Of a stretch of DNA of 32,000 bases, positions 3,412 through 31,922 are shown one piece after another. The DNA comes from Thermococcus indicus. Its GTDB lineage: Archaea; Methanobacteriota_B; Thermococci; Thermococcales; Thermococcaceae. The notes under the pieces were generated by a model. It searched no databases and was not told the DNA's origin. It worked only from the letters and a program-made list of their open reading frames with translations. The position numbers and the translations under genes were made by a program. How positions within the stretch are numbered: the first letter of the stretch is position 1; the number at the start of each line of letters is the position of its first letter. The stretch is from positions 1,029,041-1,061,040 of the forward strand of contig NZ_CP040846.1 in assembly GCF_006274605.1 (NCBI RefSeq), written 5' to 3'.

Positions 3412-4305
3412 TCACACCGTCAGGAGCACGGCTATTATTCCCAGTATGGTCGGCCACTTCCAGAAGAACTTGGCCGCCTGGTCTATGGTGAACCTCGGGT
3501 AGATGCTGGCCACGAATATCGCTATGAAGAGCACCGCTATCTGCTTGACCAGCAGCTCGAGCAGGTTGCTCGCACCGCCGAGGAAGAGTACGGCGAAGAA
3601 GGCGGTCTCTGCGAAGAGCTGAACGGCGTGCTGGGTGAAGAGCAGTGCCGCGTGCTTGCCGCCGTACTCGACCATCGGTCCCATGGAGATTTCCGCCGGG
3701 GCGGTGATGATGTCGAACGGCTCCAGTCCGAGCATCGCCTGGAAGACTATGTCAAAGACTATCAGGGCGAGGAGCAGTGCAGGAACGAGAATGCTCCATC
3801 CCTGGGTCTGCTGGAGGGCCACTATCTCACTGAGCTTGAAGGTGCCCCAGTGCTGGATGAGGGCTATCAGCGCCAGGCCGTAGGGCAGCTGCATGGCCAC
3901 CATGGTGAGCAGACCACGCTGGACACCGACCGCTGAGTACGGGTTGCCCGAGCTCATGGCACCGAGCATTATGCCGAGCATCGGTACCTCAAGGAGGTAG
4001 GCGACGACGATGAGGTCTGCGTTGGCGCTGAAGAGCTGGAAGTTGGCGAGGGGGATGAAGAGGAGCGCAGCTATGCTGGCCCCAAGCGCGAATATCGGTC
4101 CGAAGTCGTAGATGAAGCCGTGGGTAACGCTCTCCTTTTTGCCGAGGAGCTTGAGGGTGTCTATTATCGGCTGGTATATTGGAGGTCCGACGCGTCTCTG
4201 TATCCTGGCCATTGCCTTTCTCTCAATGCCCATGAAGATGAAGCCCATGAAGGTGGCGTATATCAGCATTCCTATGACTTCAAGCACAAGTTTCCAGTCT
4301 ATCAT
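3412..4305 (-). CDS. mbxM: Mbx/MBS subunit M (NuoH-like membrane subunit)
   Basis: It is a 297-aa polytopic membrane protein with NuoH-like sequence. Its start abuts the mbxH' stop (TGAATG junction at 4303-4308). Confidence 0.85.
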   Translation of the reverse strand: MIDWKLVLEVIGMLIYATFMGFIFMGIERKAMARIQRRVGPPIYQPIIDTLKLLGKKESVTHGFIYDFGPIFALGASIAALLFIPLANFQLFSANADLIVVAYLLEVPMLGIMLGAMSSGNPYSAVGVQRGLLTMVAMQLPYGLALIALIQHWGTFKLSEIVALQQTQGWSILVPALLLALIVFDIVFQAMLGLEPFDIITAPAEISMGPMVEYGGKHAALLFTQHAVQLFAETAFFAVLFLGGASNLLELLVKQIAVLFIAIFVASIYPRFTIDQAAKFFWKWPTILGIIAVLLTV

Positions 4306-6150
4306 TCACAGCACCCCCCACAGCGCGAGTATAAGGAGCACTATCACCAGATACCATGAGTAGCTCTGGACGTTTCCGTTGTAGAACGCCTGCCTGAGAG
4401 AGTCCGCGAAGTCCTCCGCCATGCCCGCTAGCCTCTCGTAGAACCTGTCGAAGCTCCTCTTGAGCCAGAAGTCGAGGGCCTCGGCGAGTGGCCTGTAGAA
4501 GTTCTTCCTGATGCTCAGGTTGAACTCCTCAGTAACAGGGTTACCGGACTGGTAGGTGTTGGTCACGCTTATCCTCCTCACCTTTGCGCCGTAGAGGTAT
4601 ATCAGCCCGGCTATGGCGAGGCCTATCGTGAGGACTATCGTCACGAGCAGGGCGTTGTAGGTTCCGGTCGGGGTAACGAGCTTGTAGTAGTCACCGCCGA
4701 CTACCTCTCCACCGAGCATCTTGTTGATGTACCCCGTGACCAGGCCCGGAGCCACACCGAAGAGCAGGTTCGGGATGGCCAGTATGGCCATGGCTATCAG
4801 GAGCGGAAGCGGGGCCTCCTTGACGTCCTCAAGGTCGCTCGGCCTCTGGCCGAACCAGACTGAGTAGAGGAACCTGACAACGTAGGCAAAGGCCAGACCG
4901 CTTCCGAGGAATATTGCACCAGCGACGAGTGGCATGTGGGCGCTTATCGCTGCCTCGTAGATGAGCCACTTGCTGGCGAAGCCTGCCAGCGGCGGGATTC
5001 CCGAAAGGCTCAGCACCGCTATGAGGCCCATCGCGAAGGTGAAGGGCATCTTCTCGGCAAGGCCGCCCATGTCCTTGAACTGGGTCTTGCCGGTCTGGAG
5101 GATTATGGCGGCCGTGACGAGCCAGAAGAGGCCCTTGAAGACCGCGTGGCTGAGCACGTGGAAGAGGCCTCCCGCGAATCCCAGGGTGCTTCCGAGGCCG
5201 AAGGCGAGCAGTATGTAGCCGACCTGGCCAACGGAGGAGTAGGCAAAGAGCTTCCTGATGTCCTCCTGAAGCACGGCCAGGAAGCTGGCTACCACGACGG
5301 TGATGGCGCCTATCCAGGCGATTATGTACGCGAAGACCAGGTGGTTGTGGAAGGTTCCGAAGGCGGCGTAGAGCTTGTAGCCCATGAGGATGTAGAGCAG
5401 GAGGAAACCGTAGGCTCCCGCCTTGCTGAGGGCGCCGCTGAAGAAAGCGGTGTAGCTCTGGTCGGTCTCGCTGTAAGCACCGGGCGCCCAGACGTGGAGC
5501 GGGAAGGCACCTGCCTTGACGCCGAAGGCGGTCAGGAAGAGACCGAATATCACTGCCATCTCCCTGGTCGTTATGGTGCCCATGGCGGCGTCCATGTAGA
5601 GCGCCTGCCGGATGGATGCAAAGTCAAGGGCACCGGTCTTGGCGTAGAGCATTCCGATGGCTATGAGCATGGCGTAGGCGCCTATGACGCTGAGCACGAA
5701 GTACTTGAGGGACTCGTGCCTGTTCCTCCTGAGCACCATCATGAAGCTGGCAAAGGTCATGAGCTCCCAGAGCAGGAAGAAGCCCACGAAGTCCTGGCTC
5801 AGGAAGACGCCGAGCACTCCCGTGAAGCTCATCAGGGCGAAGAGCCAGTCGTAGCTCTCCCTCGATGTGACGGCCATTCCGAAGGCCATCGCGAGGCCGA
5901 CAAGGGAAGCGACGGCCGCGAAGTACCAGCTCATGGTGTTGAGCTGGAACTGGAGGGTGAACCCGCTGACTGTGAGCGAGTACTCGACCGGCTCGCTGAG
6001 GACGGTCGAGTAAAGCTTGGCCAGCATGGCCAGAGGTACGGCGGCACCGATGATGCCGATTCCCTCCCTGAGACCCCTGATGTCAAGCGCCCACGCGATG
6101 ACACCGGCAATCAGGGGCGCGAGGAGGATGATAAGCAGCTCGTTAATCAT
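4306..6150 (-). CDS. mbxH': Mbx/MBS subunit H' (second MrpA/MrpD/NuoL-like antiporter-type subunit)
   Basis: It is a 614-aa polytopic protein with proton-antiporter-type (NuoL/M/N, MrpA/D) sequence. Having a second H-type subunit is what distinguishes Mbx/MBS from Mbh. It overlaps mbxH by 4 nt. Confidence 0.85.
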   Translation of the reverse strand: MINELLIILLAPLIAGVIAWALDIRGLREGIGIIGAAVPLAMLAKLYSTVLSEPVEYSLTVSGFTLQFQLNTMSWYFAAVASLVGLAMAFGMAVTSRESYDWLFALMSFTGVLGVFLSQDFVGFFLLWELMTFASFMMVLRRNRHESLKYFVLSVIGAYAMLIAIGMLYAKTGALDFASIRQALYMDAAMGTITTREMAVIFGLFLTAFGVKAGAFPLHVWAPGAYSETDQSYTAFFSGALSKAGAYGFLLLYILMGYKLYAAFGTFHNHLVFAYIIAWIGAITVVVASFLAVLQEDIRKLFAYSSVGQVGYILLAFGLGSTLGFAGGLFHVLSHAVFKGLFWLVTAAIILQTGKTQFKDMGGLAEKMPFTFAMGLIAVLSLSGIPPLAGFASKWLIYEAAISAHMPLVAGAIFLGSGLAFAYVVRFLYSVWFGQRPSDLEDVKEAPLPLLIAMAILAIPNLLFGVAPGLVTGYINKMLGGEVVGGDYYKLVTPTGTYNALLVTIVLTIGLAIAGLIYLYGAKVRRISVTNTYQSGNPVTEEFNLSIRKNFYRPLAEALDFWLKRSFDRFYERLAGMAEDFADSLRQAFYNGNVQSYSWYLVIVLLILALWGVL

Positions 6151-7634: not shown

Positions 7635-7975
7635 CCTCTCAACCTCCTTATTTCCTCAACGTTAAGGGTTCCGTACTTCTCGTGGAGTATCATGGCGACG
7701 CTAAGGGCCATGGCGGTGGTGGCAACGCCTATGACTATTGCCGTGAGAACCAGCGCCTGGGGAATCGGATCGACGGCCTGGTTAGGCCCGATTCCCTCGC
7801 TCAGTATGGGCGCGCTCCTTCCGGCAACGTAGCCGACGCTGACCAGGAGGAGGTTCACGCCGGTCTCCATTATGCTGAGTCCGATGAGCATCTTAAGGAG
7901 GTTCTTCTTAACGAGGACCGCGTAGAGGCCTATCAGTATGAGGGAGATGGCACCGAAGTAGTAGACTGAAATCAT
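7631..7975 (-). CDS. mbxG: Mbx/MBS subunit G (MrpC/NuoK-like)
   Basis: It is a 114-aa three-TM protein of NuoK/MnhC type, in the conserved position in the cluster. Confidence 0.8.
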   Translation of the reverse strand: MISVYYFGAISLILIGLYAVLVKKNLLKMLIGLSIMETGVNLLLVSVGYVAGRSAPILSEGIGPNQAVDPIPQALVLTAIVIGVATTAMALSVAMILHEKYGTLNVEEIRRLRG

Positions 7976-8681: not shown

Positions 8682-8966
8682 TCACCACCTCACCCACCAG
8701 CCGGGCTTCTCCTCTTCCTCGGTCTCAAAGCGCTGGGTTCTTTTGATGGCAAAGATGAATATCGCACCGCTGAGCGCTGCGCCTATGGCAGCCTCTGTCA
8801 TCGCAACGTCCGGGGCCTGCAGCATGAAGAACAGCAGCGAGGCGAAGAGACTCACCGCCGCCATTCCAACCGCCGCCGCCAGGAGGTCCCTCCACTCGAC
8901 GGCAAGTACTGCGGAGATTATCATTATGCCCACTATCAGGTACTCGATAAGTGCTATGCCGTTCAT
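8682..8966 (-). CDS. mbxD: Mbx/MBS subunit D (small MbhD/MrpB-N-like membrane subunit)
   Basis: It is a 94-aa protein with about three TM helices, in the conserved position, and overlaps mbxC by 4 nt. Confidence 0.75.
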   Translation of the reverse strand: MNGIALIEYLIVGIMIISAVLAVEWRDLLAAAVGMAAVSLFASLLFFMLQAPDVAMTEAAIGAALSGAIFIFAIKRTQRFETEEEEKPGWWVRW

Positions 8967-26227: not shown

Positions 26228-27475
26228 TCACTGAATCTTGTACCTCAGGAACGCCGCTATTCCGCCGAAGGCCTTGTAGAACTGCTGGCCCTCCTCGGTG
26301 TCGAGGGAGATGACCTCCACCTCGGAGCCGGCCTCCTCCGCCATCTTTATTAGCTCCTCCGCGACGTCCCACTTCTCGAAGTCCAGGTTCTGACTGCCGC
26401 ACTTGGGGCAGTGAGTGAGTTTTTTCCTGTAAACATGGAACTCCTGCTCGCTCATAGTTTTTTCTTCGCTCCAGCCGCAGCTGTTGCACTTGGCCCTGAC
26501 CCTGACCCTGTCATAGCCCTCGCTGATGAGGAGCGTATCGACGGCGCCGAGCTCCAGGGCCTTCCTGACTTCGTTCTCACCGTACGTTATCATCCCTGTG
26601 TCCTTGACGAGGTGCCTGAAGAAGTTCTGTATGAGGTGGCGCTCCTTTATGGCCTCGTGGTCTTTGAGGATGTCGCTGGCCTTCTCGACGAGCTCCTTGA
26701 GGCCGTAGGCCCCGCTGTAGCTGATGTCAACGACGCCGATTATCTTCTTCCTTAGCTCGTGGTGGAGGTACTCGCCGTCTATGAAGTCCTCCTTGGTCGG
26801 TCCCGGGCCGCCTATGATGATGCCCCTCAGCTCGCCCTTCTCCAGGAGGGGGAGGAATGCCTTGTTGGCGTGCTCGGCGATGCGCTTCATGAACTCGTGG
26901 GTCTCCTGCTCACGGATGCGCTCGTAACGCCTGGCCGACTGACCACCTGCCCTGGTCTTACCGGGCACGTTGGAGGTCAGCTCGTCGATGACGTCTATCC
27001 TCTTCCCGCGCAGGAGACCTATGGTGGCTTCGTTCTTCTCAACGGTTATGAGGCCGTAGGCGTCCTTGACGCGGAGCATCTCCTCCAGCGGCTCGGTGAT
27101 GAAGGTCTGGTCGCACCGGTAGAGCCTGACCTTGAGGGGTTCTGGAGGGATTATCGCCCAGAGCTTTATGTCGCTGACGCCCTCCTGCTCGCTGACGTTT
27201 CCGACGAAGAGGGCCAGACCGGTCTCGGGGGTCTTGCGGTAGAGCTTGAGGTGCTGCATCGCCCTCTCAAGGGCACCGAGGACGTTCTTTCGGGTTGACT
27301 TGCTCTTGATGTTCTGGGCCGTCCCGTACTCCTCCCTCAGCTGCTGCATGACCTTGTTCAGATCGTATCCGGCCGGAACGTAGAGGGTCACCAGTTCGGT
27401 GGCTCGACCTCGATAACCCTTCAGCTCCTCGACCTTCTTCTTGAGTTCATACATCTCGGCTGACTTGTGAGACAT
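26228..27475 (-). CDS. prf1: Peptide chain release factor aRF1
   Basis: It has the NIKS motif (TAQNIKSKS), the GGQ motif ([11 protein letters not shown]) and a C-terminal Zn-ribbon-like insertion (CNSCG…CPKCG). The ATG at 27475 ([11 protein letters not shown]…) follows GGGGAGTG. GTG 27484 and ATG 27481 are alternative starts. Confidence 0.9.
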
Positions 27476-27583
27476 GAGCATCACTCCCCTTCAGAACGTT
27501 TTTCCAGCCAGTTTCCGCTACCTGAGAATGAAAAAAGCAGGGAATTTATAAAAGTTTAGGAACAGGGGAGGATTCGGCTAGAA

Positions 27584-27808
27584 TCACGAGATTATTATGA
27601 GGGCTATGACGCCCAGGATTCCTCCTATAGCAACCACCAGAACGTTCAGCGCCGTTAGTGGCACATCCGATATCCCTATCCAGTTCGTGAACCACAGGAT
27701 AATCAGGCCGATTATCGCGTTGGCCAGGAGGTACCTGATTATGGCAAAGCCTACCTTGACCACCAGCAGGATGACCAGGAACGGGAAAAACAGCAACTCT
27801 CCAAGCAT
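27584..27808 (-). CDS. Small two-TM membrane protein, BofA-like (pro-sigmaK processing inhibitor family fold)
   Basis: It is a 74-aa hydrophobic protein. …LLANAIIGLIILWFTNWIG…ALNVLVVAIGGILGV… resembles PF07441. Confidence 0.45.
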   Translation of the reverse strand: MLGELLFFPFLVILLVVKVGFAIIRYLLANAIIGLIILWFTNWIGISDVPLTALNVLVVAIGGILGVIALIIIS

Positions 27809-27900
27809 GGTATTACCTGAAGTAGTTAAAACGAACGGGCTTATTAATCTTTCGCAACATAAATGGGATGCCGGAAGAAATGAATAAATTCAATTTCGAA

Positions 27901-28461
27901 TTATGAAAGTTTTTCAAGGGCTTCCCTTGCTATCTCTCCCAGCGGTACCCACTTCTTGCCCTCGAACGGGAGTATAACCTTATCCTCGACGCCCACGAGC
28001 TCCTCGATGTAGGGCCTTGCATCGGTTATACCAAGCTCCCCCGCGAGGAGTGCCGCGAACCCCTTGAGGTTCCGGCCGCCCTCGACCAGCGCCCTGATTA
28101 TATCGTCACTTACCTCCGCCCGCAGCGCCCTCACAGCTCCTCCAAACTGCCCCGCGAGCTCGTAGGAGAGCACCATGGCGTTTTCCCGGACGTACGGGTT
28201 CCTATCCAGGGTAAGGGCTACAGCCTTTGGGAACACCGTCCTCAGCCGACCCTCTAGAAGCCCGGGCCTCTGCTCTGCCACCATTCCGAGCAGGAGGAGG
28301 GCGTCTCCCCTGATTCCGGGAGAGCTTTCATCCAGAAGTTCAATCAGGCCGTCCAGGGCCTTTTTGTCCTTTACAACAATCGCCAGTGCCTCGTCAAAGC
28401 GCTCCTCCTCGATGAGCTTTTTGATTTTGCCCCTCTTGGAGCCGAATGAAAAGAGTCCCAT
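27901..28461 (-). CDS. HEAT/PBS-lyase-like repeat protein
   Basis: It has repeated helical units with …SPGIRGDALLLLG…, …NPYVRENAMVLS… and …GRNLKGFAALLAGELG…. The ATG at 28461 follows AAGGTGA, and GTG 28470 is an alternative start. Confidence 0.5.
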   Translation of the reverse strand: MGLFSFGSKRGKIKKLIEEERFDEALAIVVKDKKALDGLIELLDESSPGIRGDALLLLGMVAEQRPGLLEGRLRTVFPKAVALTLDRNPYVRENAMVLSYELAGQFGGAVRALRAEVSDDIIRALVEGGRNLKGFAALLAGELGITDARPYIEELVGVEDKVILPFEGKKWVPLGEIAREALEKLS

Positions 28462-28462
28462 G

Positions 28463-28558
28463 GCGGTCACCTTAAGGGGAGGGTTGTCGGGGGAGCGTTA
28501 AAGGTTTTTCGTCCCGATATCCCAAAGATATTTAAACGCGGAGGCACACTTTTTCATA
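28463..28558. repeat. Direct repeat copy A (~95 bp); also the functional divergent promoter/leader between the HEAT gene and the cassette
   Basis: It aligns to 29772-29858 at roughly 85% identity. The identical runs are GAGGGTTGTCGGGGG (15 nt) and CGTTAAAGGTTTTTCGTCCC (20 nt). It contains the TATA-like ATATTTAAAC. Confidence 0.85.
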
Positions 28559-28580
28559 GGCATTGGAATGGTGAACGAAA

Positions 28581-29303
28581 ATGACACCTCCGGCACTTCC
28601 TGTCCAGCATGGTAACTTTGCGGGCCTGGCGTTCCCGTTCGGCAGTATGAATATTCGGCCGTTGCTGGAGGGGATATCGCGGGATGGAGGTGGACTCAGG
28701 GGCGTTTTAGAGGAGTTCAAAAAGAACCTGGGCGAAAAGGAGGGAATTCTGTTCTCCAGGTTGATGGAGTTAACTCCAGATGAACCGAGTGAGGAAGCCT
28801 ATCTTATGGCTATTGAACGTATTTATAGGCTCTTTACCGAGGAGTTCGAAGGGGACATCCATGCAATTGCCGATGCGGCGATTAACGTGGAGATGACTCC
28901 CAACGAACTTGAGGAGGAACTTAGGAACATCATCCTGCCAGAACTCGTTAAACTGAAAGCGGATATTGACCGGGCTTCTGAGCTACTGTTGAAAAAAGCT
29001 CTGGACGGCCGGCTTCCCGAGGAGGAGCTGGAAGAGATGGATGCTGTGGACAGATTCCTTTTCATTGAATCGAACATTCTTGGAATAATCATAGAGACCA
29101 GGAGCCTCGAAACTGCCAGCGAGCTGTCATCCTACTTCCTGCTGCTCATGCTTCGGTTGTTGAAACTTCTCCAGAACAGAAAGTCTCTCACCGAACTGCT
29201 TGAGGACATCAAAATAGTTGCCGGTAAGATAAGGGAAGTTCATCCGACTCCAAGTGCGGTGGATGACTATTTCCTTGATGAACTTCTTGAATCGAATACC
29301 TGA
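28581..29303 (+). CDS. Hypothetical 240-aa acidic, predicted all-helical protein; upstream partner of the MazF-like gene
   Basis: The ATG at 28581 lies 6 nt after GGTGA, and ATG 28647 is an alternative start. It is very Glu/Asp/Leu-rich and I recognise no motif in it. The C-terminus is …VDDYFLDELLESNT. Its stop lies 16 nt before the MazF-like start. Confidence 0.55.
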   Translation: MTPPALPVQHGNFAGLAFPFGSMNIRPLLEGISRDGGGLRGVLEEFKKNLGEKEGILFSRLMELTPDEPSEEAYLMAIERIYRLFTEEFEGDIHAIADAAINVEMTPNELEEELRNIILPELVKLKADIDRASELLLKKALDGRLPEEELEEMDAVDRFLFIESNILGIIIETRSLETASELSSYFLLLMLRLLKLLQNRKSLTELLEDIKIVAGKIREVHPTPSAVDDYFLDELLESNT

Positions 29304-29319
29304 GATTGGAGGTTGTCCA

Positions 29320-29700
29320 ATGGAGCAGGGTGAGATCTGGACGGCCCCGTTCCCTTATTTTGATGAGGATGGAGGGCTGAAATACAAACATCGGCCGGTT
29401 CTTATAATCTCCGGCGACACAATGAACAACAATGGGCGGGATGTAGTAGTCTGCCAGATTTCGCGGTTTGAGCTGAAGCGTGTCTCTGCCCTGTCCCCCC
29501 AGCTTAGGGAGATGGTGAGGGTTATAAAAAACGATGACCTGGACCCAAACACCAGCAGAGGGCTTAGGAACGTGAGTATGATAAAACTCTTCAAGCTGTT
29601 CACAATGCCCAAGACGAAACTCAGAAACGGTAGATACATAGGAAAGCTCAAGGAGGGCGTTATAACGGAGCTGGCAGAAAAGACACGGGAGCTTTTTTAA
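29320..29700 (+). CDS. PemK/MazF-family toxin (putative endoribonuclease)
   Basis: MEQGEIWTAPFPY…HRPVLIIS…DVVVCQIS…IGKLKEGVITEL… parallels the PemK/MazF pattern (MERGEIW…RPVLIV…VVVPVTS…). The ATG at 29320 lies 7 nt after GGAGGT. Confidence 0.7.
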   Translation: MEQGEIWTAPFPYFDEDGGLKYKHRPVLIISGDTMNNNGRDVVVCQISRFELKRVSALSPQLREMVRVIKNDDLDPNTSRGLRNVSMIKLFKLFTMPKTKLRNGRYIGKLKEGVITELAEKTRELF

Positions 29701-29771
29701 GGGCCTGTGTTGGGTCTTTGGTGCATATAGATGTTCCGGCGCCTCCTTACCTCTCCTAATTCAGCACGAAG

Positions 29772-29858
29772 ACGGCCACCTCAAGGGAGGGTTGTCGGGG
29801 GGACGTTAAAGGTTTTTCGTCCCTATGCTCAGGATATTCAAACGCGGAAGCACACTTG
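29772..29858. repeat. Direct repeat copy B (degenerate copy, no gene served in either direction)
   Basis: This is the same alignment as copy A. The TATA equivalent is mutated to ATATTCAAAC. The remnant of the HEAT-gene start (GTGGCCGTC versus GTGACCGCC) is followed by a stop after 7 codons. Confidence 0.85.
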
Positions 29859-29872
29859 TATGGTTTTCTTCA

Positions 29873-30193
29873 TTATTCAGCACCCGTGAGCTCTTTGAAC
29901 TCCTCTTCAACTTCCTGGAGAGTCTCTTTTACCTCCGGCCATTCATCCTCGAAATCCCCTTTTAGCAACTTTCTCCGGGCTTCCATAGCCTCTGCCTTGA
30001 TTTCTTCGGGCGTTAAACTCTTGGCGAGCTCTCTGGCCTCTTCAATCATCATCTGGCCAAGCGTCATGGTAACTGCGAATTTAATGAAGTCCGAACGGCT
30101 CCGAAACTCCTTTCTCTGCACCAATTCGTCAATTTTCTTAACAACATACCCTGGAAGCCTCACCGATATTGGGTATTCAACCCTCTCCGCCAT
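29873..30193 (-). CDS. Ribbon-helix-helix (CopG/Arc-MetJ-type) protein with an acidic C-terminal extension; no adjacent co-directional toxin
   Basis: YPISVRLPGYVVKKIDELVQRKEFRSRSDFIKFAV is a classic RHH beta-strand plus two helices. The start is ambiguous among four ATGs (30205-30193). Confidence 0.65.
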   Translation of the reverse strand: MAERVEYPISVRLPGYVVKKIDELVQRKEFRSRSDFIKFAVTMTLGQMMIEEARELAKSLTPEEIKAEAMEARRKLLKGDFEDEWPEVKETLQEVEEEFKELTGAE

Positions 30194-30496
30194 CCACATC
30201 ATCAACTACAAATAAACTACAATAGTATTTAAACCTACTCTTAAGTCCCAACCCTCCTATCCGCTACCTATATATTTTGAGAGTGTCTTAACCGCTTCTT
30301 TTCCACCAACTACTTTTGCTTTTCCACTTTTATACTCCTCAAACCTCTTTTCAAGGCCTTTAAGTTCCCCATCTACTTTTCCAACGGGTGGGAGGACTGC
30401 ATCGAAACTATTTAAACCTCCTCGTTGCCGTTTTTCTGTTCATATTGCTAGTTAACCAGAACGGGACGGTCTAAAAGAGAAAAATGATAACGGGGC

Positions 30497-31030
30497 TCAG
30501 ATTACCCATCCTTTCTTTTTCAGTTCCTCTAGGAACTCTCTTGGAGTCAGAATCTTGATTCTGCAAACTTCATTCCCATCTTCATCCTCAATGATTACTT
30601 CCCTGGTTTCGGGATCCCGCAGTGAAAGGAGATCGTCTTGATCTTGGGTGATGAGATACTCAACACCGGCATCACAGGCCACTGACAAAACTTCATTATC
30701 CTCCTCATCCTCACTGGCATCTACCCAGCTCTCTGGACTGATTACTACAGACTTTATTTCAAACGCTGTCATAATTGCATAAGGTTTGTACCATAGTAGT
30801 CCCCCGGTTGGCCCTGAAGATTTATTGGCCAGATACCTTTGGACACGACGACTTCCCAATTTGGCACGAAGACGGTCAAGCATCAACTTCGAAGCGAAAT
30901 TGACTATCCTGCCTTCAATCACCAGGCGAACCACGGTTGCTGGCGCCGCTGCCGGTCCTCCTAACGCGGAGGACACGGCGACGTTCAGGTCTATCACTAC
31001 GGGAATAGGCTCGAACTTCCTTCTCGACAC
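30497..31030 (-). CDS. PIN-domain protein (COG1569/TIGR00305-type putative toxin)
   Basis: It has PVVIDLNVAVSSALGGPAAAPATVVRLVIEGRIVNFAS… and …DNEVLSVACDAGVEYLITQDQDDLLSL, which match the PIN_3-type pattern. The GTG start at 31030 is two codons after an in-frame TGA. Confidence 0.65.
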   Translation of the reverse strand: MSRRKFEPIPVVIDLNVAVSSALGGPAAAPATVVRLVIEGRIVNFASKLMLDRLRAKLGSRRVQRYLANKSSGPTGGLLWYKPYAIMTAFEIKSVVISPESWVDASEDEEDNEVLSVACDAGVEYLITQDQDDLLSLRDPETREVIIEDEDGNEVCRIKILTPREFLEELKKKGWVI

Positions 31031-31319
31031 CTTTCAACACCTCCTGGATCTCATCATCACTCGGAGGTGAATCCGGCCCGAGGGCCATCATCTCCAGGAG
31101 GGCTTCATCAGAGGTAGGTACCTTAAACGCGGGAAGCTCGAAGAGTGCTTTTTGGATTGCATAATTGATGAAGTCACTCCTGCTCGGGAAAACCCCCAGG
31201 TCCACGAGGGCCTCTATCTGCTCGTATGCAAATATTGGAATCCTCACGCTGATCAATTTGGTTTTGGGGCCATCCTTCCCCTTCCCAGTCCTCCTGGTTA
31301 TCTCCAGAGAGTATGCCAT
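30915..31319 (-). CDS. Ribbon-helix-helix (CopG-type) putative antitoxin upstream of the PIN gene
   Basis: KLISVRIPIFAYEQIEALVDLGVFPSRSDFINYAIQKAL is an RHH motif. The ATG at 31319 follows GGGGGTGG, and ATG 31385 is an alternative start. Its frame reads 116 nt into the PIN gene. Confidence 0.6.
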   Translation of the reverse strand: MAYSLEITRRTGKGKDGPKTKLISVRIPIFAYEQIEALVDLGVFPSRSDFINYAIQKALFELPAFKVPTSDEALLEMMALGPDSPPSDDEIQEVLKGVEKEVRAYSRSDRPERRRVLRVRRTGSGASNRGSPGD

Positions 31320-31523
31320 CCAAACCACCCCCACAAGTACCTCGTAATACGTTTGTATTACATCTTTTAAAAACTTTTTGGTCATGTATCTGTCAAGAAG
31401 TTTAAGAATTAAGAACGCAGTTCTTAGAGAAAGTGTGAGAAGAAAATGTTACAGGGAGCCAGGTCTCACCCGCCAAAAGGTCCTCACTAAAGAACTCCTT
31501 GGAGATCCATAAGAGATCGCGCC

Positions 31524-31922
31524 TCAGCCCGCCCCAAGCGAGCAGATTATAACCTCGCACGCGCCCGCGTTGCCGTCCATGCAGTCGTTGTAGATTTTCT
31601 CAAGAGTCTTGCCGTCCGTTGAATATTCTATAACCTCCGGATAGGTGCCGGTGTAGGATGTCTTATCGACGGTGCAGGTGGTCTTGCCGTCCGAGATCGT
31701 GAGGGTTACCGTTTTGGACTTGAGTTCCTCCCAGAGCTCGTTGGCCTTCAGCTGGACGACGATGTACTGGGCGTCGTTCTGAAGCTGGAGAACGTTCACC
31801 TGCTCGCCGGTCTCTATGGTGTGGGGAAGGACGCCGTTGTTGTAGGCGAAGAGAGTTGCCAGAACGAGCACGAACATCCCGGCGAGCATGAATAGGTACT
31901 CCAGAGAAGCCTGGGCGCGCAT
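31524..31922 (-). CDS. Class III signal peptide protein (archaeal type IV pilin-like)
   Basis: The N-terminus MRAQASLEYLFMLAGMFVLVLATLF matches the prepilin-peptidase site (K/R-A/G-Q-x-S-x-E-Y) plus a hydrophobic helix. The ATG is preceded by AGGTGATC. Confidence 0.7.
   Translation of the reverse strand: MRAQASLEYLFMLAGMFVLVLATLFAYNNGVLPHTIETGEQVNVLQLQNDAQYIVVQLKANELWEELKSKTVTLTISDGKTTCTVDKTSYTGTYPEVIEYSTDGKTLEKIYNDCMDGNAGACEVIICSLGAG

Follow-up and report, generated by a model that had tools for sequence, protein, structure and literature searches.

In the archaeon Thermococcus indicus, two direct repeats of about 90 bp, hereafter copies A and B of one unit, bracket a cassette of two genes that encode an acidic protein (open reading frame (ORF) ORF240) and a MazF-like toxin. 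Both repeats lie in a stretch of 32,000 nucleotides (contig NZ_CP040846.1, positions 1,029,041 to 1,061,040), which we call the window and whose numbering is used throughout. An initial annotation, made from the letters alone, had described the repeats and proposed that they are the footprint left by the arrival of the cassette, either an att-like site or a long target duplication. The locus was compared with the corresponding loci of Thermococcus aciditolerans (L001), Thermococcus sp. JdF3 (L002) and Thermococcus sp. 21S7 (L004). The features that concern the repeats directly are the following.

27901–28461, minus strand: gene for a HEAT-repeat protein (186 aa), a conserved Thermococcus chromosomal gene with a weak Pfam HEAT_2 match
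28464–28551: copy A, a native back-to-back promoter region; the whole unit is conserved in 21S7 beside the same cassette
28464–28513, minus strand: inner part of copy A, with the HEAT leader (Shine-Dalgarno sequence (SD) GGTGA) and the putative HEAT B recognition element (BRE) and TATA box
28496–28515, minus strand: putative HEAT core promoter block of copy A, with the minus-strand sequence GGGACGAAAAACCTTTAACG
28514–28551, plus strand: outer part of copy A, the putative island-borne promoter of the ORF240-mazF operon
28581–29303, plus strand: ORF240, an acidic all-helical protein (240 aa, pI 4.5), presumed partner of MazF and antitoxin candidate
29320–29700, plus strand: mazF/PemK toxin gene (126 aa), full-length match to Pfam PemK_toxin (PF02452, E = 6.5e-14)
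29701–29765: cassette-distal tail downstream of mazF (76% over 75 nt); the homology with 21S7 ends at 29765
29773–29857: copy B, a decayed duplicate of copy A, without ATG
29867–30245, minus strand: ribbon-helix-helix (RHH) module, CopG/ParD-like, made of a promoter, a 106-aa gene (29873–30193, Pfam RHH_1) and the first 7 nt (ATGAAGA) of a lost PIN_3 gene

The repeat unit and its two copies

Of the 88 columns in the co-linear alignment of copies A and B, 75 are identical (85.2%), 10 are mismatches and 3 are gaps. Its score of 108 in local alignment lies far above that of 2000 shuffles (14.8 ± 2.1, maximum 26), and BLAST returns an E-value of 2e-21. The identical runs GGGAGGGTTGTCGGGGG and CGTTAAAGGTTTTTCGTCCC, which the initial annotation had pointed out, each occur exactly twice in the window, for a chance expectation of 0–0.2. 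The two repeats of about 90 bp are real, and the earlier description of imperfect direct repeats of about 95 bp with roughly 85% identity was sound. The longest run identical in both copies measures 20 nt, and a repeat finder reports the match as two blocks, one of 42 nt (93%) and one of 34 nt (82%).

Copy A is, as first described, a native divergent promoter and leader region. Its inner side belongs to the HEAT gene, which has 90 homologues, the closest in T. aciditolerans (92%) and then in JdF3 (90%). The orthologues are all 185–186 aa long and start with MG(F/L)FSFGSK, which places the start at ATG 28461. Because the gene starts there, the repeat contains the HEAT leader and SD and none of the codons; it ends 2–3 nt upstream of the ATG, and the earlier statement that copy A holds the first HEAT codons has to be corrected. 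The assignment of the two promoters of copy A, one to HEAT and the other to ORF240-mazF, is inferred from the archaeal BRE/TATA consensus.

In copy B, the cassette-side TATA box carries an A to G mutation (ATATTCAAAC at 29834–29843, against ATATTTAAAC at 28528–28537 in copy A), in agreement with the difference reported at first, and the SD is altered to GGTGG. With these two elements damaged and no ORF following, copy B serves no gene, as had been read from the start, and we infer that it is without function. The HEAT-side BRE/TATA block had been overlooked: it is 100% intact in copy B (29804–29823).

A five-way alignment was used to polarize the differences. The leader states CCCCCGACAACCC are common to copies A and B, whereas 21S7, T. 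aciditolerans and JdF3 display CC(G/T)GCGGCAACTA. A 17-nt stretch, ACGAAAAACCTTTAACG, is identical in both T. indicus copies and in the three relatives. About 10 private changes were counted in copy B (including those of the cassette-side TATA box and SD and the loss of the ATG) vs. 2–3 in copy A, as expected for a relic beside a constrained original. The derived states shared with copy A and absent from the orthologues indicate that copy B is a paralogous segmental duplicate, and the earlier suggestion that it came from some recombination or duplication event still holds.

Both copies had also been credited with a small hairpin, GGGACG-N12-CGTCCC. The 6-bp inverted repeat is present, but its folding stability is nothing out of the ordinary (z = −0.6 for copy A, −2.5 for copy B), and only ACG..CGT is kept in the relatives. 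A conserved structure was therefore rejected, as neither the folding z-scores nor the alignment of the relatives gives it support.

The BRE/TATA block and the 6-bp inverted repeat flanking it could form a transcription-factor site, and the unit could then be a generic dispersed intergenic repeat (MITE-like, or an operator/promoter module of a regulon) present twice here by chance. We consider this very unlikely. It corresponds to the orthologous HEAT promoter, found at the same locus in four species, and neither the remainder of the window nor some 80 kb of related loci contains a further copy. The 21-mer ACGAAAAACCTTTAACGYYCC has an exact match in each of T. aciditolerans, JdF3 and 21S7. Scans of metagenomes with ACGAAAAACCTTTAACGYYCC and with the cassette-promoter pattern, and of a viral collection with the unit pattern, gave no match, and no Rfam family matches the unit. 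In a genome collection that apparently does not include these Thermococcus genomes, ACGAAAAACCTTTAACGYYCC gave one chance match, in a metagenome-assembled genome of Muribaculaceae.

Empty sites and the extent of the island

The cassette is part of a larger toxin-antitoxin (TA) island, to which the following features belong or which they border.

28514–31523: TA island (3,010 bp), bounded by the pilin-like gene (stop codon) on one side and the HEAT core promoter on the other
30246–30449: 204-bp segment between the PIN177 tail and the RHH module, part of the segment that differs from 21S7
30497–31385, minus strand: second TA pair, an RHH gene (30915–31385) and a PIN_3 toxin gene (30497–31030)
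31524–31922, minus strand: pilin-like gene (132 aa), directly upstream of HEAT in T. aciditolerans and JdF3

Read in the orientation of HEAT, the island comprises the RHH-PIN_3 pair (31385–30497), the 204 bp, the RHH gene (30193–29873), copy B, mazF, ORF240 and the 38 nt of the outer part of copy A. The 204-bp segment has no similarity to 21S7 or to other RHH-PIN loci.

The initial annotation had suggested looking for an empty site with a single copy of the unit. Cassette-free relatives do exist, namely JdF3 and T. aciditolerans, but their empty sites lack the whole 3.0-kb island, not merely the 1.2-kb cassette, and hold only 50 of the 88 nt of the unit. In JdF3, the stop codon of the pilin-like gene lies 6 nt from ACGAAAAACCTTTAACG (ACGAAAAACC), and 5–6 bp replace the island. 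In T. aciditolerans, the island is replaced by an unrelated spacer of 159 bp, in which no remnant of the island or of the cassette promoter was found (p = 0.58, 0.59 and 0.05). At both sites, the 50 nt corresponding to 28464–28513 exist and the 38 nt corresponding to 28514–28551 do not. Since the JdF3 empty site holds only the HEAT-side 50 nt, copy A is composite: 50 nt of chromosomal HEAT promoter and leader, followed by 38 nt of island-borne cassette promoter.

The island of 21S7 occupies the identical site (L004, 6635–9948), with the order pilin-like gene, RHH, PIN_3, decayed IS607, PemK, ORF240, one copy of the unit and HEAT. The junction from ORF240 through the unit to HEAT is co-linear with copy A, and the unit is present in a single copy; because 21S7 has the cassette with one unit, the cassette does not need two repeats. 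By blastn, positions 29765..27012 of the window correspond to L004 8697..11426, and the two islands differ only in T. indicus 29766–30449 vs. L004 7756–8696. The decayed element of 21S7, of the IS607 family of insertion sequences (IS), extends over L004 7741–8628 and consists of TnpA residues 1–151 fused to the C-terminus of TnpB (last ~100 residues). This remnant sits where T. indicus has RHH and copy B; ATCTAYGAAACAGCC occurs on either side of it (about 7787 and about 8614), and a 32-nt direct repeat is found at 7741 and 7799.

These comparisons bear on the first proposal, in which the repeats would be a site-specific att repeat or a long target-site duplication (TSD) that an integrase or transposase had produced in trans. 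The direct repeats do bracket a discrete two-gene module, just as direct repeats mark the ends of an accessory segment at the att sites of integrated elements of Thermococcales (SSV-type or tyrosine-integrase elements in tRNA genes) and in transposon TSDs, and a serine-recombinase IS of the IS607 family lies beside the cassette in 21S7. IS607-family elements are not known to make target duplications. Family scans found no integrase or transposase in the cassette, as noted from the start, and no recombinase in the rest of the T. indicus island, whose other genes are RHH and PIN only. The cassette ends bear no terminal inverted repeat, and no tRNA gene, the usual target of integrated elements in Thermococcales, is present in the window. 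Moreover, the repeat is 88 nt long at 85% identity, far longer than a TSD and unlike a short perfect duplication, and it includes element-specific sequence that is missing from the empty sites. Neither plasmid nor viral collections gave a match to the cassette. The absence of the whole island from the empty sites, where only 50 of the 88 nt are found, the single copy of 21S7 and the derived substitutions shared by copies A and B but absent from all orthologues all argue against a footprint of this kind, which we consider extremely improbable.

Origin of copy B

Copy B repeats the 50 nt of chromosomal origin as well as the 38 nt borne by the island (AAGTGTGC..TTTGAATATC), the latter facing away from the cassette. 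Because it spans the junction between chromosome and island and shares the derived leader states, copy B was made after the cassette had come to adjoin HEAT; since it spans this junction, it cannot be a pre-existing target.

The neighbouring RHH gene gives a second indication. It has 39 homologues, and an overlapping PIN_3 gene follows in all the contexts retrieved (L006, L007, L008 and L009). The RHH module is 88% identical in nucleotides to L006 over 30245..29867; the homology takes in only the first 7 nt of the PIN gene, and about 9 nt separate its end from copy B. No PIN remnant is detectable beside RHH in T. indicus. The RHH antitoxin is thus orphaned, copy B occupying the place of its PIN toxin gene. 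The 65-nt tail between mazF and copy B was considered as a possible PIN fragment (25-nt match at 30854–30878, peptide RLRAELG...) and rejected, the tblastn E-value being 0.037 in a tiny database; this tail gave no match with true PIN_3 partners.

The composition of copy B also bears on a Campbell-type 'pop-in', a recombinase-free version of the att-like proposal, in which a circle carrying the cassette and one unit would have recombined into a resident unit. The direct geometry of unit, cargo and unit is exactly what integration by a single crossover leaves, the repeats could also excise the cassette, and the island has demonstrably been exchanged between species (see below). In Thermococcus kodakarensis, it is established that naturally competent cells take up circular DNA, that DNA can integrate through short stretches of homology, and that direct repeats can recombine to excise what lies between them (PMC3370424). 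The locus only half fits such an integration. The cargo does lie between direct repeats of a chromosomal segment in a competent genus, but the repeat extends 38 nt beyond the naive target, one relative carries the cassette with a single copy, and the copies are 15% diverged. Had the cassette simply integrated at a naive site, be it site-specifically or through a single crossover, the left copy would lack the 38-nt part: the naive target, as seen in JdF3 and T. aciditolerans, has 50 of the 88 nt, and copy B nevertheless possesses this part. The recipient would already need a cassette remnant fused to a truncated PIN gene, i.e. at least one extra event. In addition, no chimeric mixture of donor and recipient states is seen in the two copies and, as they are 85% identical and nowhere share more than 20 identical nt in a row, recombination between them would be inefficient today. 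A pop-in is on balance rather unlikely.

We favour, and hold to be fairly probable, an origin of copy B by illegitimate recombination during the loss of the PIN gene, as a local segmental duplicate that is now decaying. The ORF240-mazF cassette would first have come to adjoin the HEAT promoter, and copy B would have been made afterwards, in the T. indicus lineage, at a distance of 1.3 kb, in the joint formed when the RHH-PIN pair lost its PIN toxin gene. Illegitimate recombination would be the event itself, and the loss of PIN would have left the antitoxin orphaned. By one route, a single deletion would have been patched by a template-switch copy of the sequence 1.3 kb away. By the other, a tandem duplication of the cassette with its unit would have been followed by deletion of the first cassette copy and of the PIN gene. 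The microhomology at the junctions of copy B (ATGAA on the left, nothing clear on the right) is too ambiguous to separate the two routes. The repeats are probably a scar of the erosion or rearrangement of the TA island, and not the mechanism by which the cassette arrived.

Several points weigh against a local duplication. No genome carries an intermediate (an intact RHH-PIN pair beside the cassette, or a tandem cassette), so that the route is deduced rather than observed. The 20-nt BRE/TATA block is unchanged in copy B, while the other 68 columns display 13 differences (~19%); the post-hoc chance of this is roughly 0.01–0.04, and copy B could keep some function. The copy number of the unit was established only over the window and about 80 kb of related loci. 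Finally, the 15% divergence of copy B is about equal to the whole divergence of the island between T. indicus and 21S7, which implies that the duplication is either old or error-prone.

An old duplication could mean that both copies were present in the island of the common ancestor and that 21S7 lost copy B when IS607 inserted and decayed. The private change of copy B (~12%) is indeed greater than or comparable to the per-lineage divergence of the island, the IS607 remnant of 21S7 lies exactly where copy B would be, and copy A shows a weak similarity to L004 8599–8670 (p = 0.011 before correction, 5 tests). This similarity overlaps the IS-flanking ATCTAYGAAACAGCC and is not significant after correction, and a decayed copy B at this position was rejected. 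Besides, the leader states shared by copies A and B are absent from the unit of 21S7, and a later gene conversion would be needed to account for them. An ancestral pair of copies is thus unlikely.

It is also doubtful that the unit serves as a portable homology for a recombinase-free pop-in and pop-out of the cassette, or that copy B acts as an antisense promoter. In the first case, the cassette would travel together with a duplicate of the neighbouring chromosomal gene's promoter, recombination by the host between the two copies would let it in or free it as a circle of 1.3 kb, and TA addiction would counter-select the loss of the cassette. In the second, weaker and speculative case, copy B would be retained because its intact HEAT-type BRE/TATA block gives rise to an antisense transcript that enters the 3' end of mazF and crosses a conserved micro-ORF.

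This micro-ORF has 9 codons (MHQRPNTGP, 29726–29697, minus strand); it is convergent with mazF, and its stop codon overlaps that of mazF. A GGAGG-type SD precedes it, and the intact promoter of HEAT type in copy B lies upstream of it in T. indicus. It is kept in 21S7 as MH(Q/K)RPNTGP (L004, about 8735–8764, plus strand), with 3 synonymous changes and 1 conservative change.

The TA genes and their exchange between species

The first description of the cassette as an acidic protein (pI 4.5) with a MazF-like toxin (Pfam PemK/MazF, E-value as listed above) is borne out. ORF240 and the T. indicus hypothetical protein FH039_05795 are identical (100%). A word-indexed search of 5.8e9 proteins gave a sole other homologue, in 21S7, and a full HMMER scan of 1.84e9 representatives gave 11 relatives. 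No family of Pfam, NCBIfam or PADLOC includes it. The ORF240 family has a conserved C-terminal motif, DDYF(I/L)DELLE, and the AlphaFold (AF2) model of ORF240 is all-helical (predicted template modelling score, pTM, 0.75), with no match of its fold in the PDB (Foldseek, best E = 1.5). The mazF gene starts 17 nt downstream of ORF240, in the same operon; its product is 93% identical in amino acids to the copy of 21S7, and no solved relative was found by sequence.

The best distant relative of ORF240 (38% identity) is directly followed by a PemK gene whose product is 47% identical to this MazF, and a relative and PemK adjoin in L010 (the relative at 4001–4696), L011 and L012. ORF240 and MazF are thus a conserved gene pair. 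As in the MazEF/PemIK type II TA systems, a toxin of PemK/MazF fold lies just downstream of an acidic partner, and the pairing is kept in distant genomes. Unlike in these systems, the partner, 240 aa long and all-helical, has no MazE, AbrB or RHH domain, belongs to no known family and matches no fold in the PDB. The pair resembles a MazF module whose partner, a putative antitoxin, is non-canonical; falling outside every known antitoxin family, ORF240 is a candidate for a new antitoxin type.

The second TA pair matches Pfam PIN_3 (6.6e-12) and TIGR00305 (5.6e-15), with a weak RHH-type match, and is 92–94% identical in nucleotides to that of 21S7. Its RHH and PIN_3 genes overlap by 116 nt in different frames (30915–31030), and this overlap is kept in 21S7 (L004, 7176–7291). 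Such a length is unusual for a TA pair, and the true start of one of the genes may differ.

We compared the divergence at fourfold sites in the island and in the flanking core genes. Between T. indicus and 21S7, it reaches 0.40 for the pilin-like gene, 0.48 for eRF1, 0.50 for ArgRS and 0.66 for HEAT in the core, vs. 0.08 for RHH, 0.17 for PIN, 0.17 for MazF and 0.20 for ORF240 in the island, i.e. values 2.5–6 times lower. For the same four core genes, the divergence between T. indicus and T. aciditolerans is 0.06–0.33. As its fourfold-site divergence is far below that of the flanking core, the island has been exchanged horizontally. The unit of transfer between species would be the whole 3-kb island, which two distantly related species carry at exactly one and the same site. 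Members of Thermococcus are established to be naturally competent and to recombine homologous DNA efficiently (PMC3370424), and the island most likely moves by homologous recombination in its conserved flanks.

The HEAT gene itself displays an uneven pattern. Between 21S7 and T. aciditolerans, its promoter, leader and first ~90 nt are 95–96% identical, while the middle of the gene falls to 45–70%; this pattern fits recombination in the flanks. In the same comparison, the first ~90 nt, the promoter and the 3' end taken together are 87–96% identical. Between T. indicus and 21S7, the middle of the gene is hypervariable, especially at 28050–28300 (45–58% nucleotide identity). Such variation points to a gene of mosaic or recombinant origin, or to diversifying selection. 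Further accessory genes were noticed nearby: JdF3 has two extra genes between HEAT and a BofA-like gene (L002, 10638–11791), and a further RHH-PIN_3 pair lies a few kb upstream in 21S7 (L004, 4261–5049). The neighbourhood of HEAT as a whole is an accessory-gene hot spot.

Comparable hot spots of TA genes have been described in bacterial chromosomes, where genes are gained and turned over rapidly, toxins are lost and antitoxins are left as orphans (Belot et al. 2026, PMC13617665). As in these, type II pairs (RHH-PIN, RHH with its PIN lost, and ORF240-MazF) are clustered here between two core genes; they are present or absent among close relatives and were acquired horizontally, one toxin gene has been deleted, and an IS remnant occupies the same spot in a relative. 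The locus differs from them in that it belongs to an archaeon of the genus Thermococcus and that erosion left an 85-nt copy of the promoter of a neighbouring gene at the deletion joint.

The repeat is thus real but ordinary in kind, a rearrangement scar, and it calls for caution: direct repeats flanking a cassette do not amount to an insertion footprint until the empty sites have been checked. If the repeat did mediate excision and integration without a recombinase, it would provide a simple mechanism for the mobility of TA cassettes in competent archaea. The locus offers a clean archaeal case of a TA hot spot that was exchanged between species at one fixed site and then eroded, with toxin loss, an orphan antitoxin, a promoter duplicate and, in a relative, an IS remnant as the signs of this erosion. 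The ORF240-MazF pair is the more useful by-product of the analysis, as it would represent a new antitoxin type if ORF240 neutralises MazF.

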